A stretch of 64,000 bases of DNA from Candidatus Magasanikiibacteriota bacterium (lineage in GTDB: Bacteria > Patescibacteriota > Patescibacteriia > Magasanikbacterales > GWA2-37-8): assembly GCA_963802255.1 (NCBI GenBank), contig CAWDHY010000001.1, positions 491,842-555,841 of the forward strand, in the 5' to 3' direction. The position numbers and the translations under genes were made by a program. Positions 6,716 through 57,700 of the stretch are shown piece after piece. How positions within the stretch are numbered: position 1 is the first letter of the stretch; each line of letters opens with the position of its first letter. The notes beneath the pieces were generated by a model. The model was not told the DNA's origin and did not search any database. It was given only the letters and a program-made list of their open reading frames with translations.

Positions 6716-7492
6716 TTAATGTTCTTCGGCGACATGTGGTTTGGTTGTTGCGATAGTAAGGTATACCAATGTTAAAATCGCGAATACGCCCGCCTGAATC
6801 AAACCAACCAATATTTCCAGAAACATAAATGGCGTCGGCACCAAAAAAGCCACCAGACTGCTCATAACCGTAATCAGGATTTCGCCGGCAAATATATTGC
6901 CAAATAGCCGGAAAGAAAGCGATAGGACTTTCGCCAATTCTGATATTACTTCCAATAATCCCACAAATAATTCTATTATCGCTGAAAAAATAGCCAGCGG
7001 ACCTTTTTTTATACTGAAAATCAACTGTTTAATTTGAATAAATTTGCCGATGTAGGTAAAAAATCCAACCGCAATTAGGCCCCATACGTGCGATGTTATC
7101 AGCGCGACAAGTGTCATACCAAAAACCAGATTCAGGTCTGTATTTGCCGGACGAAGAAGCATTTTATGTTCATAAGTAATACTCCCTGTTCCCGGTAGCA
7201 GGCCAAGCCAATTTGATAGTAGTATGAAAAAAAATGCTGAACCGACTAACGGCAAGAATTTTAGCGTTTTTTTTCTGTCTCCGGTCACTTGGTCAAAAAA
7301 ACCCAGCAACGTTTCAAGAATAAATTCAAAAGTATTCTGAAACTTACCGGGACGCAATGAAATTTTGCGTTTTATGATAATGCCAATAATAAGAAAAATA
7401 ATTATTGCAAGCCATGCATTGATTACAGTATTTGTTATGGGTAATGGCCCCAGATAAAAGAGAATATCCGGCGCTATCGTTGGTATGTGCAT
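6716..7492 (-). CDS. atpB: F0F1 ATP synthase subunit a
   Basis: 258 aa polytopic membrane protein. Has the conserved Arg-containing helix ('...LSLSFRLFGNIFAGE'). Confidence 0.85.
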   Translation of the reverse strand: MHIPTIAPDILFYLGPLPITNTVINAWLAIIIFLIIGIIIKRKISLRPGKFQNTFEFILETLLGFFDQVTGDRKKTLKFLPLVGSAFFFILLSNWLGLLPGTGSITYEHKMLLRPANTDLNLVFGMTLVALITSHVWGLIAVGFFTYIGKFIQIKQLIFSIKKGPLAIFSAIIELFVGLLEVISELAKVLSLSFRLFGNIFAGEILITVMSSLVAFLVPTPFMFLEILVGLIQAGVFAILTLVYLTIATTKPHVAEEH

Positions 7493-29524: not shown

Positions 29525-29572
29525 CTTTCACAATTTATTCCGGGGTAGCGCAGCGGTAGCGCAGTTGACTGT

Positions 29573-30176
29573 GGGCACGTTCTCGCCCCATAATAATTTT
29601 TTTATGGGAAGGGAAAAAAGGAGATATGCTGATCGTGCCGCCTATATGATAAAAGCGGTTGATAAAAGACGGAAACTAATCCGAAAAATGTCAGTCGAAT
29701 ATATGGGTGGTCGCTGTGCAATTTGTGGCTATAATAAATGTAATTATGCGCTTGAATTCCATCATAAGAATTCTGACGCGAAAGATTTCGGCATTTCAGC
29801 TAAAGGATATACCAGGAGCTGGGAGAAAGTTAAAGCCGAGCTTGATAAGTGCGTTTTATTGTGCGCAAATTGCCACAGAGAAATACACGAAGGCATGACG
29901 CAGCTTCCTTGAGTAATCAAGGTCGTAAACGAGGTGAATTGTCCCGATAAGCAATCGGGATCTCGCAAATATATAATTTTAGTGAAGCGGGACTGGGAGC
30001 CTAAACTGTGAAAACAGTATGGTAATCAGCAGCCGAGCCCGCAAAGGCGGGAAGGTTCAGAGACTATCCTTTTACAGGAGTACATCAATTTTTTTGATGG
30101 AAGCGCCTCGCTCCTTCGATTTATATGCGAAGGATGATGATATAGTCCACCCTATTTGGAAACAGATAGACAAGTG
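29573..30176 (+). mobile_element. group I self-splicing intron with internal HNH homing-endonuclease ORF
   Basis: Recognisable group I core elements: P-like 'GCGGGA' (29986-29991), Q-like 'CCCGC' (30037-30041), R 'GUUCAGAGACUA' (30055-30066), S 'GAUAUAGUCC' (30139-30148), P2-like hairpin 'UCCCGAUaagcaAUCGGGA', terminal G at 30176. The ORF occupies a 5' peripheral loop. Confidence 0.7.
29604..29912 (+). CDS. HNH homing endonuclease (intron-encoded)
   Basis: '...CAICGYNKCNYALEFHHKNSDAKDFGIS...LLCANCHREIH': CxxC...HH...N...CxxCH, the HNH motif. The start could be ATG 29604 (MGREK...) or 29690 (MSVEY...). The ORF-track TTG start at 29565 lies inside the tRNA exon and is rejected. Confidence 0.7.
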   Translation: MGREKRRYADRAAYMIKAVDKRRKLIRKMSVEYMGGRCAICGYNKCNYALEFHHKNSDAKDFGISAKGYTRSWEKVKAELDKCVLLCANCHREIHEGMTQLP

Positions 30177-30222
30177 TAATCAATTGGTCGTGGGTTCGAA
30201 TCCCACCCCCGGAGCGAAAGAG

Positions 30223-30250: not shown

Positions 30251-30440
30251 GAACGACGGGGAGCAACCAAATAGTTTTGGTTGCGTGTGGGGTGAGAACG
30301 CCGGAGCGATGTTTGGCGAGCTTGCTGGCGAGACAAACCGCGAGGCGGTGGCCAGACAAAATTTTCGGAAGAAAATTTTAGTCGAAGCCGAATCCCACCC
30401 CCGGTGCAAAATTAAAACAAGGCCTGAACGGCCTTGTTTT
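30251..30440 (+). repeat. tRNA-linked GC-rich structured element, copy A (candidate ncRNA / miniature integrative element)
   Basis: Hairpin 1 'GCAACCAAAtagtTTTGGTTGC'. Core 'ACGCCGGAGCGATG'. Hairpin 2 'GTTTG...CAAAC'. Core 'CGCGAGGCGGTGGC'. GGAA-tetraloop hairpin 'AAAATTTTCggaaGAAAATTTT'. 'GTCGAAGCC', then 'CGAATCCCACCCCCGG', which duplicates the tRNA-Asn 3' end. Own terminator 'aaaacAAGGCCtgaacGGCCTTgtttt'. Homologous copies at 41817..42027 and 56558..56770. Confidence 0.6.
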
Positions 30441-41631: not shown

Positions 41632-41702
41632 TTTCAGATCCCCCCTTGATTTTTTTGTAAATATATTATATCATTTGCCAAGTGTTATGTCTATTGGCCC
41701 GG

Positions 41703-41777
<75 letters not shown>

Positions 41778-41816
41778 AATCCCTCTTTATGGGGGTATTT
41801 TTGTTTTTGGCTCGGA

Positions 41817-42027
41817 GCGACCAAACTGCTTTGGTCGCAACTGGGATGAGGACGCCGGAGCGATGTCGCGCGACGCAGGATGGCGAACGCGACCGCGAGG
41901 CGGTGGCTAGACAAAATTTTCGGAAGAAAATTTTAGTCGAAGCCGAATCTTTACCCGCTTTGAGTGGCCAGCCGGGTCACAACACTAAAAATTGCCCTTT
42001 TAGGGCTCTTTTTTTATGTTTAAATTC
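41817..42027 (+). repeat. tRNA-linked GC-rich structured element, copy B
   Basis: Same architecture as copy A. Hairpin 1 'GCGACCAAActgcTTTGGTCGC' with compensatory changes. Cores 'ACGCCGGAGCGATG' and 'CGCGAGGCGGTGGC'. Hairpin 2 'GTCGCG...CGCGAC'. Identical GGAA hairpin and 'GTCGAAGCCGAATC'. Ends with 'CCAGCCGGGTCACA', a duplicate of the tRNA-Lys 3' end, plus terminator 'GCCCTttttaGGGCtcttttttt'. Confidence 0.6.
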
Positions 42028-53727: not shown

Positions 53728-55188
53728 TTACTTCTCCACTTCCCTTGCTTCCGCTTTACTGAGAAATTCCTTCTTAATCTTATCAAAATATTTCATTGCC
53801 GCCTCGTATTCATTTGGAATAACACCGTCGAGTATTGCCTCTTCAATCGCCTTCTTAATTTTTCCGACTGTTCGTCCCGGTTTTAAGCCGCATAATTTCA
53901 TTATTTCATCCCCGCGAAGTGGCGATTGAAACTCACGCAATTTATCTTTTTCCATCACCTCAATAATTCGTTTTTCAAGCCGGTCATAATTTTTTAAACG
54001 CTTTTCTTTCTTTAAGGGATTACCCGTAGTTATATCGGACCGTCCTAATTTCAATAAATCATCCAGCTCAATATTTAAATTAACGATTAATCGTCTTACC
54101 GCGGAATCCGTTATGCCTTCATCCATCAACGAAATAGGCTGTTGATGCCACCGAACAAGCTTCGCAAGATATTCATTATTATCATTTGACATATGAAGCC
54201 GCTTGCCAATCTGTTTGGCGAGTTTGCGTCCGACATGCTCATGTTGATAAAAAGTCCAGCCAATTTTAGGCACGAATTTTTTTGTTTGCGGCTTCCCGAT
54301 ATCGTGAAGAAGAGCCGCAAAACGCAACAACGTATTATCGGTCTTTTCCGCGATATTATCCACAACCTTAAAAGTATGTACCAAATTATTTTTATGCTGA
54401 TGGCCAAAAACTTCCTCAACTCCATCCAGTTTAGCAACTTCAGGAAGAATAATGTCTAATAAACCGGTCTGGAACATCAGTATTAAACCAACTGAAGGAA
54501 TTTTACAGGACAGCAAACGCATAAGCTCCTCCTGTATTCTTTCCGCAGAAACTATCTTAAGACGGGAGCCATTTTTATGAATTGATTTTAAGGTGTCTTG
54601 GTCAATACCAAAATTTAACTGCGCGGCGAAACGAATGGCACGCATCATGCGAAGAGGGTCATCACTAAAAGTATCGTCCGGATCTAATGGTGTTTTGAGC
54701 AAGCGGTTTTTTATGTCTTTAATTCCGAAGCATGGATCAATTATTGATTTTTTAAAAATTACAGACGAAGGTTTTGCCGTTTTGGTGAAAACACTCACCG
54801 GTATCGCCATCGCATTCACGGTAAAGTCTCTCCGTAATAAATCCTCAGCCAATGTTGATTCAGTCACTACCGGTTTGCGTGAATTTTTTTTGTACTTTTC
54901 TGTCCTTGCTCCGGCAAATTCCAGAACTAAAGCATCTTCGTCTTCTTCCAACAAATATCTGGCTGTATCAAAATCCGCAAATTCAACCAGGCTTCCTGTC
55001 TTTTCTATTTCATCATCAAACGCTCTCGCAAATTCTATACCGCTGCCTTCAACTACAAAATCAATATCTTTTTTTTGATCTATGCCAATTAAAAAATCAC
55101 GCACAAATCCGCCGACTATAAAAACCGGCGTATTAGTTTTTTTTGAAACCGAATGAATTACCTTAAATACATCCGAATTTTTTGACAT
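53728..55188 (-). CDS. cca: CCA tRNA nucleotidyltransferase (poly(A) polymerase head + HD domain)
   Basis: 'FIVGGFVRDFLIG...DIDFV' nucleotidyltransferase motif. HD domain 'HTFKVVD...LLHDIGKP'. Confidence 0.8.
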   Translation of the reverse strand: MSKNSDVFKVIHSVSKKTNTPVFIVGGFVRDFLIGIDQKKDIDFVVEGSGIEFARAFDDEIEKTGSLVEFADFDTARYLLEEDEDALVLEFAGARTEKYKKNSRKPVVTESTLAEDLLRRDFTVNAMAIPVSVFTKTAKPSSVIFKKSIIDPCFGIKDIKNRLLKTPLDPDDTFSDDPLRMMRAIRFAAQLNFGIDQDTLKSIHKNGSRLKIVSAERIQEELMRLLSCKIPSVGLILMFQTGLLDIILPEVAKLDGVEEVFGHQHKNNLVHTFKVVDNIAEKTDNTLLRFAALLHDIGKPQTKKFVPKIGWTFYQHEHVGRKLAKQIGKRLHMSNDNNEYLAKLVRWHQQPISLMDEGITDSAVRRLIVNLNIELDDLLKLGRSDITTGNPLKKEKRLKNYDRLEKRIIEVMEKDKLREFQSPLRGDEIMKLCGLKPGRTVGKIKKAIEEAILDGVIPNEYEAAMKYFDKIKKEFLSKAEAREVEK

Positions 55189-55190
55189 AA

Positions 55191-56249
55191 CTATACTTTT
55201 TTATTCGAACCGATGCGTTTTAAAGCTACATCTTTCTCAATAAGATTTTGATCAAGTAATTCCTTTACAGAATTCTCCATGGTCACCATACCTTCTTTTA
55301 CGCCGGTTTGAATCATCGACTTAATCTGATTTACGTTATTTTCTCTGATTAAATTGGCTACTGCCGGAGTATTAATTAGAATTTCCCGCGCCGGAACCCG
55401 GCCACCATTTTTTGCGGGTATCAGATGCTGTGCAACAACAGCCCGCAAAACTGATGACAATTGAGTCAGTACCTGTTTCTGTTTTGAGCCCTCAAATACA
55501 TCTACAATTCGTTCAACCGCTTCTGCGGCGCTGGGTGTATGTAAAGTGGAAAAAACCAAGTGCCCGGTTTCAGCGGCAGTAAGAACGGTCGCTATTGTTT
55601 CCGGGTCACGCATCTCTCCGACGAATATAACATTCGGATCCTGACGCAATACATGTTTCAACGCATTCGCGAAAGTCAGAGTGTCTTTACCAACTTCCCG
55701 TTGCTCAATTAGACTCATTTTATCTTTAAAAACAAACTCAATCGGATCTTCAATTGTAACAATGTGAGCCTTGCGTTGCTTGTTAATTTCTTCAATCATT
55801 GACGCGATAGTCGTAGATTTACCGCAACCAGTCGGTCCGGTAACCAAAACCAATCCATCCAACAACCCGCTCAAACCTCTTAAAGTGTCGTTAAAACGAA
55901 GATCGTCCGGAGTTGGAACCTCCGTCGGAATTAGTCGTGCGGCCAAGCCAATCTTCTCATCTTGCTGGTGAATATTAACGCGGAACCTGACTCCGCTCAC
56001 TTCATAGGCAAAATCCAACTCCTTTTCTGATTCGTATTGTTCACGTTGGCCCGGCAACAATAACGCCGCTATCGCCCGGTTCAATGCGCCATTTTCAAGA
56101 ACATTACTGTCTAATTCCACCAAATCGCCATGCAGACGCATCATCGGTTTTTCCGCTCCGACAAGATGCACATCAGAGGCGCCATTTTTAATTGCCTGTT
56201 TAAAATATGTATTTATATCAAGCATAAAATATATGTTATATTGTAACAT
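55191..56249 (-). CDS. pilT: type IV pilus retraction ATPase PilT
   Basis: Walker A 'GPTGCGKST', Walker B and His box 'GHLVFSTLHT'. PilT-type N-terminus 'ASDVHL'. The start may be the internal 'MLDINTY'. Confidence 0.8.
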   Translation of the reverse strand: MLQYNIYFMLDINTYFKQAIKNGASDVHLVGAEKPMMRLHGDLVELDSNVLENGALNRAIAALLLPGQREQYESEKELDFAYEVSGVRFRVNIHQQDEKIGLAARLIPTEVPTPDDLRFNDTLRGLSGLLDGLVLVTGPTGCGKSTTIASMIEEINKQRKAHIVTIEDPIEFVFKDKMSLIEQREVGKDTLTFANALKHVLRQDPNVIFVGEMRDPETIATVLTAAETGHLVFSTLHTPSAAEAVERIVDVFEGSKQKQVLTQLSSVLRAVVAQHLIPAKNGGRVPAREILINTPAVANLIRENNVNQIKSMIQTGVKEGMVTMENSVKELLDQNLIEKDVALKRIGSNKKV

Positions 56250-56260
56250 TATAGCACAAT

Positions 56261-56300
56261 TTGACTCTATTGAAAAGAAACATTAAATGTGATAAAATTT
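56261..56300 (+). promoter_or_regulatory. candidate promoter for the tRNA-Pro pair (TTGACT ... A/T-rich -10)
   Basis: 'TTGACTctattgaaaagaaacattaaatgtgataaaatt' ends about 8 nt before tRNA-Pro(GGG). The -10 element is degenerate ('TAAATG'/'GATAAA'). Confidence 0.3.
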
Positions 56301-56307
56301 TGCAATT

Positions 56308-56381
56308 CGGGGTATAGCTCAGTTGGCTAGAGCGCATGCATGGGGTGCATGAGGCCGCAGGTTCAAGTCCTGTTACCCCGA
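56308..56381 (+). tRNA. tRNA-Pro(GGG)
   Basis: 'CGGGGUAUAGCUCAGUUGGCUAGAGCGCAUGCAUGGGGUGCAUGAGGCCGCAGGUUCAAGUCCUGUUACCCCGA', with C1-G72 and A73 (bacterial Pro signature). Confidence 0.85.
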
Positions 56382-56453
56382 CAAGTTTATGTAAATTAAA
56401 AAGTTGACAATGCGAGTTAATTAACGTATTATTTATTCGCTTTTCGGGGTGTA

Positions 56454-56527
56454 GCTCAGTTGGCTAGAGCGCATCGTTCGGGACGATGAGGCCGCAGGTT
56501 CAAGTCCTGTCACCCCGACTAAACAAA
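56454..56527 (+). tRNA. tRNA-Pro(CGG)
   Basis: 'CGGGGUGUAGCUCAGUUGGCUAGAGCGCAUCGUUCGGGACGAUGAGGCCGCAGGUUCAAGUCCUGUCACCCCGA'. Confidence 0.85.
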
Positions 56528-56557
56528 ATACCGCCTTGGCGGTTTTTTGTTTTTGAG

Positions 56558-56770
56558 GGGTGTGGCGAGCAAATAGTTTTGCTCGCCAAAGGACTTGAAC
56601 GCCGGAGCGATGCCGCGCGACGCATGCGAGCGAGCGCGGCCGCGAGGCGGTGGCTAACCCGAGCCGGCGGAAGCCGATGAGAGGCGAAGCCAAGTCCTGT
56701 CACCCCGACTAAACAGAAATACCGCGTGAGCGGTTTTTTGTGTTTTGAGGGGTGTGGCGAGTAGCAAAAG
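56558..56770 (+). repeat. tRNA-linked GC-rich structured element, copy C, with approx. 75-bp duplication of tRNA-Pro(CGG) 3' end + terminator
   Basis: Hairpin 1 'GGCGAGCAAAtagtTTTGCTCGCC'. Cores 'ACGCCGGAGCGATG' and 'CGCGAGGCGGTGGC'. Hairpin 2 'CCGCGC...GCGCGG'. 'CGGCggaaGCCG' GGAA hairpin. 'GGCGAAGCC'. Then 'AAGTCCTGTCACCCCGACTAAACAgAAATACCGCgtgaGCGGTTTTTTGTgTTTTGAGGGGTGTGGCGAG', which duplicates 56511-56577 with a compensated loop change in the terminator. Confidence 0.6.
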
Positions 56771-56925
56771 TCCTCATTTACCCGATACAACCTTGACGAA
56801 TCAGCTAAACTATGCTATGAATATCTGTCGTGAATATTATAGGATATTAAATTCTCGCTCGTTCAACAACGGCCCTTCAGGACTGTTCTCAAAAAAGCCC
56901 ACCTTATAAGTGGCAAGGAGGTCGC

Positions 56926-57663
56926 GTGCAGATAGAAGAGGTCAAGATAACCGATCATATCTGGAGCTACGTTTCCGAAAAGTATCTCGAGGCCGGACTT
57001 GCTGACGAGCTGATCCACGGCATGAGGCACATGCGCCACGTACGCGAGGTCTGCAACAACATCTGCGACGTGCAGATCTTGGACTCGCGGGTCATCAGGT
57101 GCCTGCACGCAGCGGTCGACATCCACGACATCGGTCGGGCCGTCGACAAGACGCGCGATCACGCCATGGTGTCCTCGGAGGTGTTCCGGCAGATGGCTCT
57201 CGATGATCTGGCAACGGACGAGTACGAGGCGGTGCACTTCGCCGTCATACACCACAGCCGCGGCCTGCGCGCCATCGGCATCAACGAGGCGAAAGACCTG
57301 AAGGAGGTCCTGCTCGGCCTGCTGTGCGTCTGCGACCACGCGGATGCCGCAAGCCCCGACGGTGCGGCCCGAGCCGCGCTCGCACTGAAGAACAAACCGA
57401 TCCTGTCGGACAACTACACGGCCGAACATCTGCGCGAGCTGATGACCAACGGTTGCGCGCCGGAGCTGATGAACGTCTACAAGAACGACAGCCTGGCGGC
57501 TCACCTGGCCTACAACTACTGCGCCACCGCGCACATCATCGCGCCGGTCCGGCACCTGCTCAACGGCCGCTACATGAAGGACTGGAGCGATCCGCGCCTC
57601 GCCATGTTCCGCGTCATCGTCGAGACCTACCTGAATCTGCAGGAGAAGAAGAACCTCCTGTAG
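56926..57663 (+). CDS. HD-domain phosphohydrolase encoded in a GC-rich foreign insert
   Basis: GTG start 5 nt after a perfect SD 'AAGGAGG'. 'HGMRHMRHVREV...VDIHDIGR' is the H...HD motif. Third-position-GC-rich codon usage contrasts with the rest of the window. Confidence 0.6.
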   Translation: MQIEEVKITDHIWSYVSEKYLEAGLADELIHGMRHMRHVREVCNNICDVQILDSRVIRCLHAAVDIHDIGRAVDKTRDHAMVSSEVFRQMALDDLATDEYEAVHFAVIHHSRGLRAIGINEAKDLKEVLLGLLCVCDHADAASPDGAARAALALKNKPILSDNYTAEHLRELMTNGCAPELMNVYKNDSLAAHLAYNYCATAHIIAPVRHLLNGRYMKDWSDPRLAMFRVIVETYLNLQEKKNLL

Positions 57664-57700
57664 CCCGCGTTTCCACCGACTTCGGAATAGAAGTTCCTTA

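Follow-up and report, generated by a model that had tools for sequence, protein, structure and literature searches.

A family of tRNA-tailed structured RNAs in Patescibacteria and a partial tandem re-duplication proposed behind tRNA-Pro(CGG)

The window, by which we mean the whole 64,000-nucleotide stretch of Candidatus Magasanikiibacteriota DNA analysed here, carries a tRNA-Pro(CGG) gene at 56445-56519 (called by ARAGORN; 67.3 bits with the Rfam tRNA model), preceded by a promoter-like site, TTGACA-17-TATTAT, at 56404-56432. All features of this locus lie on the forward strand. The end of the gene, from T-loop position C56 to the 3' end (X, 56501-56519), opens a direct repeat whose first copy spans 56501-56569, as delimited by a repeat finder, alignment and a terminator scan. 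X is followed by a terminator, S (56520-56554, stem at 56530-56543), and by GAGGGGTGTGGCGAG (56555-56569), the first 15 nt of an element that we call copy C. This block contains GGGGTG (56557-56562), the 5' strand of helix P1, which by minimum free energy (MFE) folds and reading of the sequence pairs with CACCCC of a downstream tRNA-end copy in a mimic of the acceptor stem. Hairpin P2, GGCGAGCAAA-TAGT-TTTGCTCGCC, occupies 56564-56587 and is found upstream of the core in many family members. The 5' strand of helix P3, a GAAC and the conserved core lie at 56588-56690, as defined by a match to covariance model R1 (56588-56709, 87.6 bits, E=5.5e-23), the consensus structure and covariation. The P3 strand, GGACTTG (56591-56597), is complementary to positions 56-62 of the T-loop and T-stem, and the core comprises P4 (CGCC/GGCG), P5 (GCG/CGC), hairpin P6, P7 and hairpin P8 with a GGAA loop. 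The RNA ends with X' (56691-56709), a second copy of the tRNA-Pro 3' end from C56 onward, which forms P3 and P1 with the 5' arm. Beyond it stand a second terminator copy, S' (56710-56746; stem 56721-56734, loop GTGA, T-run), and the start of a truncated second unit (56747-56761), in which GAGGGGTGTGGCGAG again supplies a P1 5' strand (P1') and the 5' half of P2 (P2'). Homology and synteny with relatives both stop at the end of this block.

In a global alignment of 56501-56569 with 56691-56761, 66 of 71 positions are identical. A preliminary description had reported a direct repeat of about 75 bp covering the tRNA-Pro 3' end, the terminator and 15 nt of the element, and the alignment upholds it; the bounds given there, 56511-56577 and 56701-56770, are corrected, the true start lying 10 nt earlier. 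The copies differ by two 1-nt indels and by three substitutions, which all fall in the terminator loop or its closing pair, changing CTTG to GTGA as had been noticed; the stem ACCGC/GCGGT is kept in both copies. Identity is 100% over the 19-nt tRNA end and again over the 15-nt GAGGGGTGTGGCGAG block. The local alignment score of 60 is far above chance (8.2 +/- 1.2 in 300 shuffles). On the left the repeat is bounded by C56 in the T-loop of tRNA-Pro(CGG) (56501 and 56691), and on the right it ends after GGCGAG (56569 and 56761), in the 5' half of the element's first hairpin; its precise anchoring in the tRNA and terminator region, and its passage across the terminator into the 5' arm of that hairpin, were therefore described correctly. 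The second copy lies 190 nt downstream, separated from the first by some 121 nt (56570-56690), close to the 125 nt of unique sequence originally estimated, and this interval is non-coding RNA. No third copy of the tRNA-Pro end occurs in the window except in the neighbouring tRNA-Pro(GGG).

Copy C is one of three homologous copies in the window, each behind a tRNA and each on the forward strand, and a covariance model built from the alignment matches exactly these three, at 88-96 bits. Copy A (30257-30406) lies behind an intron-containing tRNA that ends near 30215 and consists of a P1 5' strand (30257-30261), P2 (30263-30284), a core match (30287-30407, 96 bits) and X' (30389-30406). Copy B (41809-41981) follows tRNA-Lys(TTT) (41696-41769), with a P1 5' strand at 41809-41815, P2 at 41817-41838 and a core match at 41841-41962 (89.4 bits); its X' is split by an 18-nt insert (41951-41968), the tRNA-end copy occupying 41968-41981. 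As the preliminary description implied, only the tRNA end is duplicated in these two copies, over 18 nt in A and 14 nt in B according to the repeat finder. What copy C has in addition is solely a second terminator and 15 nt, with which a second unit begins and is then truncated.

The element of copy C (56.55-56.71 kb) is the gene for a structured RNA of about 160 nt that belongs to a large, Patescibacteria-wide family. A two-part pattern was derived from the invariant core of the three window copies and run on species-representative genome contigs. It matches the window three times and shuffled sequence not at all, and it retrieves more than 118 loci, nearly all of them from contigs with Patescibacteria or CPR titles or from MAGs with generic or improbable labels; two matches in GC-rich coding DNA (L002, L021) are evident false positives. 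Viral contigs searched with the same pattern gave no match. At the gathering score, no Rfam 15 family covers the elements of the window or of 14 loci with other cargo classes, the only matches in these sequences being tRNAs, group I introns and one group II fragment. At E<=10 the cores of copies C and A are likewise uncovered, with weak matches confined to tRNA and terminator parts. Literature searches found no description of these RNAs, and the family, widespread and uncatalogued, is apparently undescribed.

An alignment of 70 copies describes the element as a three-way junction of about 115 nt closed by P3. One arm of the junction is built from P4 (CGCC/GGCG), P5 (GCG/CGC) and the variable hairpin P6, and the other from P7 and hairpin P8, whose loop is GGAA or GCGACGGC. 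Compensatory double changes occur in 22 of the 31 consensus pairs. Paired cells amount to 92.5%, as against 35-46% when the partners are slid, and the covariation score of 0.489 compares with 0.06-0.135 for slid partners and was reached by none of 500 shuffles. P4 and P5 are invariant in the alignment because the search pattern fixed both; variants found off the pattern exchange P4 as CGGC/GCCG, TGCC/GGCA or TGGC/GCCA. The element is therefore a conserved structured RNA, with helices that carry compensatory changes beyond those of the controls. G-U pairs outnumber A-C mismatches by 52 to 28 overall and by 26 to 8 in the core, which indicates an RNA read from the tRNA strand. The core also contains strongly conserved unpaired nucleotides, tandem G-A alternatives and G-U pairs.

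Several established identities were considered for this RNA and rejected. It is called neither by ARAGORN nor by the Rfam tRNA and tmRNA models. A small ORF that begins at the conserved GGAGCGATG does not keep its frame across copies as P6 is not of constant length (26-27 nt in the window copies and about 18 nt elsewhere, as read from the sequences), and in copy C a stop follows after 15 codons. By-eye comparison showed that the defining motifs of the hammerhead, group II domain V, K-turn, T-box, C/D box, SRP, 5S rRNA and attC are absent, as are the omega-G and the U-G at a P1 expected of group I.

A tRNA on the same strand precedes the core, at a distance of 28-250 nt, in 94 of 119 pattern matches. 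These tRNAs are of the isotypes Ser, Pro, Leu, Asp, Gly, Arg, Ala, Val and Lys, and further of Glu, Tyr, His, Cys, Met, Phe, Asn, Gln and Thr. In 72 of the 94 loci the core is followed directly by a copy of the tRNA's final 16 nt with no more than one mismatch, and X' begins at T-loop position 56 or 57 and runs to the discriminator. The reverse complement of T-arm positions 53-65 always stands just 5' of the core and pairs with X' to form P3; for instance, GGACTTGAAC is found opposite TTCAAGT loops and GGAATCGAAC opposite TTCGATT loops. Reading this left arm as a sense copy of the T-stem and T-loop is refuted by the non-palindromic loops, in which TTCAAGT is answered by ACTTGAA, and the arm must therefore be the reverse complement. 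A P1 5' strand complementary to the 3' strand of the acceptor, discriminator included, is clear in about one third of the loci; it may represent a complement of X' or a sequence copied from the tRNA's 5' strand. The family layout is accordingly tRNA, spacer (often the tRNA terminator), anti(66-73), P2, anti(53-65) with GAAC, a two-armed core of about 100 nt, sense(56-73) and a second spacer. By pairing back on the 5' arm, X' closes the RNA with a helix like that of an acceptor and T-stem. Since the tRNA end recurs after the core and is paired with the 5' arm throughout the family, it is a built-in part of the RNA and not an accident of copy C. In L013, X' has diverged from its tRNA and still pairs with its own arm.

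The treatment of CCA differs with the tRNA gene. Where the gene encodes CCA, X' shares it in 12 of 13 loci. Where the gene lacks it, 52 of 60 X' copies have no added CCA and usually run on into a copy of the trailer; the remaining eight encode CCA, roughly twice the number expected by chance.

Promoter-like sites in the copy C region occur only 5' of the two tRNA-Pro genes, and S and S' both resemble intrinsic terminators in the terminator scan. With no promoter of its own and a position between two weak terminators, the element would probably be transcribed by read-through from the tRNA promoter. A minihelix made of acceptor and T-stem is a type of substrate accepted by RNase P, by 3' trimming and by the CCA enzyme, and by analogy the RNA is probably matured by these tRNA end enzymes (RNase P, 3' trimming, CCA addition), which the closing helix would imitate. 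The window itself encodes a CCA-adding enzyme, at 53728-55188. As for the conserved core, protein binding and catalysis are guesses.

L011 (MAG STC_31) is syntenic with the window over 54.3-56.76 kb and has the same tRNA-Pro(GGG), tRNA-Pro(CGG), element and extended repeat. There the two repeats match at every position (100%) for about 66 nt and stop within the P2 loop (CAAATAG), a point with which the end of the window repeat coincides if a loss of 4 nt is allowed. This shared right boundary could reflect either a mechanism tied to the site or a single ancient event with later conversion. At six or more positions where the window and L011 differ by substitution, both repeats of a genome carry that genome's own base, which implies that the repeats have undergone gene conversion or have been re-duplicated more than once. 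The partial unit ends exactly where synteny with L011 and L022 is lost. Synteny is regained near 61.1 kb, and a search on that far side of the variable region found neither the remainder of the truncated unit nor a third tRNA-end copy. Orthologs of copy C are present in L011, L022, L053 and L119. In L119 the element follows a second copy of tRNA-Pro(CGG) at another place in the locus and has no 15-nt block. Among relatives recovered by way of the neighbouring PilT gene, most show an 'empty' tRNA-Pro(CGG) with nothing but the terminator after it, and L157 and L169 carry an element there; the empty arrangement is that of distant relatives, and no close pair of empty and filled loci was found. 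Element A is 84.5% identical to that of L045, as against 74-76% in the flanks, and in L045 it persists although the body of the tRNA is missing. This persistence, together with conservation above that of the flanking genes, argues for a cellular function.

Other members of the family also extend the repeat past the tRNA end, in about 15 loci beside copy C out of roughly 90. When sequence after the tRNA was anchored against sequence after X', a clear continuation was seen in 12 of 73 loci, with more cases outside that set. Complete tandem units occur in L078 and L047, and in L118 and the third unit of L078 the additional unit enters the core and then jumps to another tRNA-end copy. Second units end in or at P2 in window copy C and in L011, L157, L065, L083, L067, L073, L044 and L017, so that P2, about 14% of the unit length, accounts for more than half of the extended-repeat end points and is the preferred one. 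In L083, P2' is followed by a T-run and looks terminator-like, and in L073 the P2' hairpin is kept through a compensatory change. In L119, L036, L059 and L079 only the tRNA end and terminator are duplicated, and the terminator stems of the L059 and L079 duplicates show compensatory changes. The right end of the extended repeat thus varies by locus, lying after the terminator, in P1, in P2 or in the core, and the duplicated segment ranges from 14 to more than 90 nt. Variable right ends and full tandem units point to misalignment driven by homology and not to a fixed crossover site. Whole and partial units and copies that evolve in concert, as tandem duplication by repeat misalignment would leave them, are all observed.

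We therefore read the copy C repeat as a partial tandem re-duplication, produced by misaligned recombination or a template switch between tRNA-end copies and then homogenised by gene conversion, and assign this reading a probability of roughly 0.55. Each unit contains two direct tRNA-end copies, X and X' (18-20 nt). Misaligned homologous recombination, or a switch of template during replication, between X and X' would re-copy X, S and the start of the element 3' of X', and a second tandem unit would begin there. In copy C this unit would have been cut off in P2, a hairpin at which stalling or breakage is likely; the loss would date from the event itself or from a later deletion or illegitimate joining to unrelated DNA. 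Gene conversion would since have kept the two repeats alike. The clustering of truncation points in P2 could alternatively mark a specific nick or recombination site. The duplication passes the mature tRNA end into the trailer, which, with the lack of added CCA in most X' copies, points to an origin at the level of DNA or of the precursor. Against the misalignment proposal, it gives no account of how a first unit with matched arms arises at a new tRNA.

The preliminary description held that the repeat does not resemble a transposase-type target-site duplication, and it was right in this, the arms being tRNA-specific and the duplicated segment variable. Insertion of an IS or MITE is rejected on like grounds, since there are no element-defined terminal inverted repeats and the duplicated length is not constant. 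Of the two mechanisms then suggested, template switching is the better half and a good candidate. Site-specific recombination is unsupported: no recombinase is consistently linked, the right repeat ends vary and the interval is a non-coding RNA. When ORFs within 2.5 kb of 118 loci were clustered, no recombinase, reverse transcriptase or other consistently linked protein recurred. The recurrent clusters were spurious ORFs over the RNA itself and a CCA-adding enzyme and a YraN-like gene, the latter two belonging to a conserved tRNA-Gly/tRNA-Arg neighbourhood, and a single serine recombinase was seen, near L032 only. One trait of tRNA-targeting integrative elements is present, namely direct tRNA 3' repeats at both ends, in 72 of 94 loci and in the three window copies. 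By gene content such an element is rejected, given an interval of 120-190 nt with no gene and no recurrent recombinase at the 118 loci.

The main rival, which we consider unlikely, is an integrative cassette composed of tRNA-end copy, terminator, 5' arm and core, inserted between the T-loop and the 3' end of tRNA genes by a recombinase acting in trans. Insertion might proceed, as for integron attC sites or CTX phage, by way of a folded single strand, and the repeats would be attL and attR; in the folded form the duplex of 5' arm and tRNA end would recreate positions 56-73 of the tRNA gene, and the partial unit of copy C would be what is left of a second cassette that had accreted there. A single strand exchange between a folded circle and a tRNA gene predicts the order tRNA, S, anti(73->53), cargo, sense(56->73), S', which is the order of parts observed and makes mobility of the cassette type conceivable. 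The direct repeats begin in the T-loop, as is reportedly the case for a T-loop class of integrases. Moreover, at least four further cargo classes share the type 1 ends, for at least five unrelated cargo RNAs in all, and type 1 and type 2 occur in tandem at tRNA-Glu, each closed by a tRNA-end copy. Presence at orthologous tRNA-Pro(CGG) loci is patchy. Core similarity is uncoupled from tRNA identity, as illustrated by window copy A and the tRNA-Ser copy of L032 (97.9%), a Pro and Val pair (93%) and an Asp and Ser pair within one genome (91%), and cores must therefore move or be exchanged between tRNA loci. Nevertheless, no integrase or other protein is consistently nearby, the viral contigs scanned lack the elements, and transfer to a different tRNA would yield chimeric, broken tRNAs, of which none were seen. 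The extended-repeat end points vary, the core is conserved like a functional RNA whereas attC sites conserve mainly their shape, and X' may, as in L013, part from its tRNA and keep pairing with its own arm. The lack of a linked protein and of chimeric tRNAs leaves the cassette as the main rival and not as the best explanation.

A broader version of the same idea, which we regard as doubtful, is a new cassette system in which diverse structured RNAs, held between inverted and direct tRNA 3' copies, insert or are exchanged at the T-loop through a folded single strand of DNA or RNA, with the further possibility that the RNA acts on tRNAs. To illustrate, X' could serve as a spare 3' piece held on a splint, with the unpaired GAA(C) pairing to the 5' side of the T-loop (UUC) of a cleaved tRNA.

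Copying at the level of RNA is improbable. A reverse transcriptase would act on the read-through transcript, switch between tRNA-end copies by homology and yield a cDNA that recombines into the locus, a process resembling rolling-circle reverse transcription in which truncation would mark the cDNA start or the transcript end, for example at P2. The repeat-flanked unit, the tandem and partial units, the end points clustered at a hairpin, the terminator-like P2' of L083 and the excess of CCA encoded in X' copies whose tRNA genes lack it are all compatible with such a process. It nevertheless lacks a linked reverse transcriptase, the un-matured trailer and terminator are included in the duplication, and the large majority of X' copies have no added CCA; nor is RNA needed, slippage of DNA giving the same pattern with fewer assumptions.

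That the partial unit is a selected module is given a similarly low probability. The downstream GAGGGGTG would pair with CACCCC of X' across S' as an alternative to P1, tuning termination or folding, and the block would persist by virtue of this function. The 15-nt GAGGGGTGTGGCGAG block has remained unchanged while the intervening terminator loop changed, which hints that the partial unit is itself under selection, and the block is also present in the ortholog L011. The MFE fold of 56553-56790 joins X' to the downstream block around the terminator, and the compensatory change in the P2' hairpin of L073 fits such a role. However, extension is limited to the minority of loci noted above and the duplicated content differs among them, the close relative L119 has no block, and gene conversion alone explains the identity. 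Finally, although short-read contigs with an identical PilT stop about 222 nt past the PilT gene start, a point that in the window lies inside tRNA-Pro(CGG) and indicates that assemblers struggle at this locus, a tandem duplication created by assembly is very unlikely, since the repeat copies differ by three substitutions and two indels and the same kind of arrangement is present in the independent assemblies L011, L119 and L157.

Patescibacteria make up a large share of bacterial diversity and have tiny genomes, yet many of their tRNA genes are accompanied by an extra conserved structured RNA. A downstream repeat of the 3' end is seen for 86 of the 202 tRNA genes in loci picked for type-1 elements, a figure to which a few neighbouring isoacceptor tRNAs contribute, and for 6 of the 67 in loci picked solely by a neighbouring PilT gene. 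Several RNA classes share one common architecture built from the tRNA's own 3' end, and none is in Rfam. If processed like tRNAs, they would form a new group of tRNA-coupled RNAs in Patescibacteria; if mobile, a new kind of RNA-gene cassette. Through the short tandem repeats to which they give rise, the elements also interrupt short-read assemblies at tRNA loci, and they are open to misreading as integration scars.

Four kinds of known system resemble the family in part. With tRNA-targeting integrative elements (attL/attR, T-loop tyrosine integrases) it shares a direct repeat of the tRNA 3' end that opens in the T-loop, with the tRNA whole on the left side and represented by a 3' fragment on the other; tandem accretion and patchy presence are further points in common. 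It differs in having only 120-190 bp between the repeats, with no integrase or other gene, in the nature of the interval, which is a conserved RNA with a 5' arm complementary to the repeat, and in the variable ends of the extended repeats. Like integron attC and the attP(+) of CTX phage, the element is an imperfect inverted repeat around a variable centre, with a topology that fits single strand exchange. By eye, however, it lacks the RYYYAAC/GTTRRRY boxes of attC, its ends being ...TCGAAC and CGAAT..., its centre is an RNA-like domain conserved in sequence, and no link to IntI or Xer was found.

The t-elements of plant mitochondria, the mascRNA of MALAT1, viral 3' tRNA-like structures (TLS) and the tRNA-like domain of tmRNA likewise have a helix like that of acceptor and T-stem and a 3' end of tRNA type. 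As with those handles, the position by a tRNA or in its transcript suggests, by analogy, release by RNase P, RNase Z and the CCA enzyme. Here, in contrast, the handle is a literal copy of the 3' 18-20 nt of the neighbouring tRNA together with a complementary strand, and it has no T-loop or anticodon arm and goes undetected by tRNA and tmRNA models. Lastly, as in repeat-mediated duplication, slippage and gene conversion, the left bound is a pre-existing direct repeat, whole and partial units occur side by side, right ends are variable, end points are associated with a hairpin and copies evolve in concert. Nothing essential differs in this last comparison, and it is from repeat-mediated duplication that we propose the extra 50 nt of copy C to have come.

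The tRNA preceding copy A, the first of three type 1 elements in the window (small structured RNAs that lie 3' of a tRNA gene and end in a copy of the tRNA 3' end), spans 29538-30215 and is interrupted in its anticodon loop by a group I intron (Rfam match at 29845-30169, 56.8 bits), with an HNH-like ORF within the intron region. ARAGORN makes no call for this split tRNA, whose 5' exon starts at 29539 with TCCGGGGTAGCGCAG and whose anticodon region reads CTGTGGG, with GTG as a putatively His-like anticodon. Among the loci from other genomes (L-numbers, carrying elements or chosen by a neighbouring PilT gene), L045 (JAPLWQ010000003.1, approximately 7126-7332) is the positional ortholog of copy A. 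Compared with window 29561-30210, it is missing both the tRNA body and the intron, and the junction reads ...TCCGGGGTAGCGCAGC followed directly by GGAGCG.... The element is nevertheless kept, at 84.5% identity to copy A.

In copy B, behind tRNA-Lys(TTT), an 18-nt insert, TTTACCCGCTTTGAGTGG (41951-41968), splits the tRNA-end copy between its T-stem and acceptor parts, and small hairpins occupy the same junction in L011, L009, L012, L016, L048 and the second element of L079. The sequence TTTACCCG is also found at 56776-56783, just 3' of the truncated second unit of copy C, the element behind tRNA-Pro(CGG). Elsewhere, a CA after the tRNA-end copy produces an encoded N73-CCA in the element, while the tRNA gene encodes N73-C only (L025, L054, L055, L058, L064, L076, L095, L101 and L119); this arrangement was counted at 8 of 60 loci, roughly double the number expected by chance.

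A gene for a CCA-adding enzyme (53728-55188, minus strand, PolyA_pol and HD domains) lies 1.2 kb away from the tRNA-Pro pair of the window. In Paceibacteria-type loci, genes for the CCA enzyme and a YraN-like protein flank an element-bearing tRNA-Gly(GCC)/tRNA-Arg(TCG) pair. CCA-enzyme neighbourhoods outside the window comprise L006, L024, L029, L033, L048, L056, L089 and L092. The proximity of this gene to elements probably reflects conserved synteny rather than functional linkage.

Beyond copy C (56860-57700), the window contains a plus-strand ORF of 245 aa (56926-57663) with no Pfam match and a G+C content of approximately 56%, versus 40% for the genome. Approximately 165 nt separate its start from the end of the truncated unit, the point at which the window ceases to be syntenic with L011 and L022; the relatives carry other DNA there. 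Two public short-read contigs encoding a PilT identical to that of the window stop approximately 222 nt past the gene start (window 56249-56471), an end point that maps inside tRNA-Pro(CGG); this repeat-rich locus breaks assemblies. Typical elements also occur in MAGs titled 'uncultured Gammaproteobacteria' or 'Bdellovibrionales' (L001, L030, L047, L050, L051, L057, L062, L073, L083, L103, L104, L107, L109 and L114), and in some, such as L083, the locus is syntenic with the window. These bins appear to have been given the wrong taxonomic labels.

The tRNA 3' end is repeated downstream of 86 of the 202 tRNA genes in type 1 loci and of 6/67 in PilT-chosen loci. At least four additional classes of cargo RNA, none with an Rfam match, share the element ends, namely a 5' anti-T-arm (the reverse complement of the tRNA T-arm, ...TCGAA...) and a 3' copy of the tRNA 3' end. 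By group of loci, these are L007, L079 and L019 (type 2); L059, L069 and L108; L018, L060, L080 and L105; and L127, L159, L057 and L055. Where the terminator is absent, a spacer motif, GAACGAAGTGAG, or a variant of it, recurs immediately 3' of the tRNA, between its end and P1/P2, the 5' strand and hairpin of the element, in many loci, including L010, L013, L017, L020, L022, L032, L044, L064, L093, L103 and L118. This spacer resembles the start of the type 2 core (GAACGGGCAGAAGTGAGCGG).
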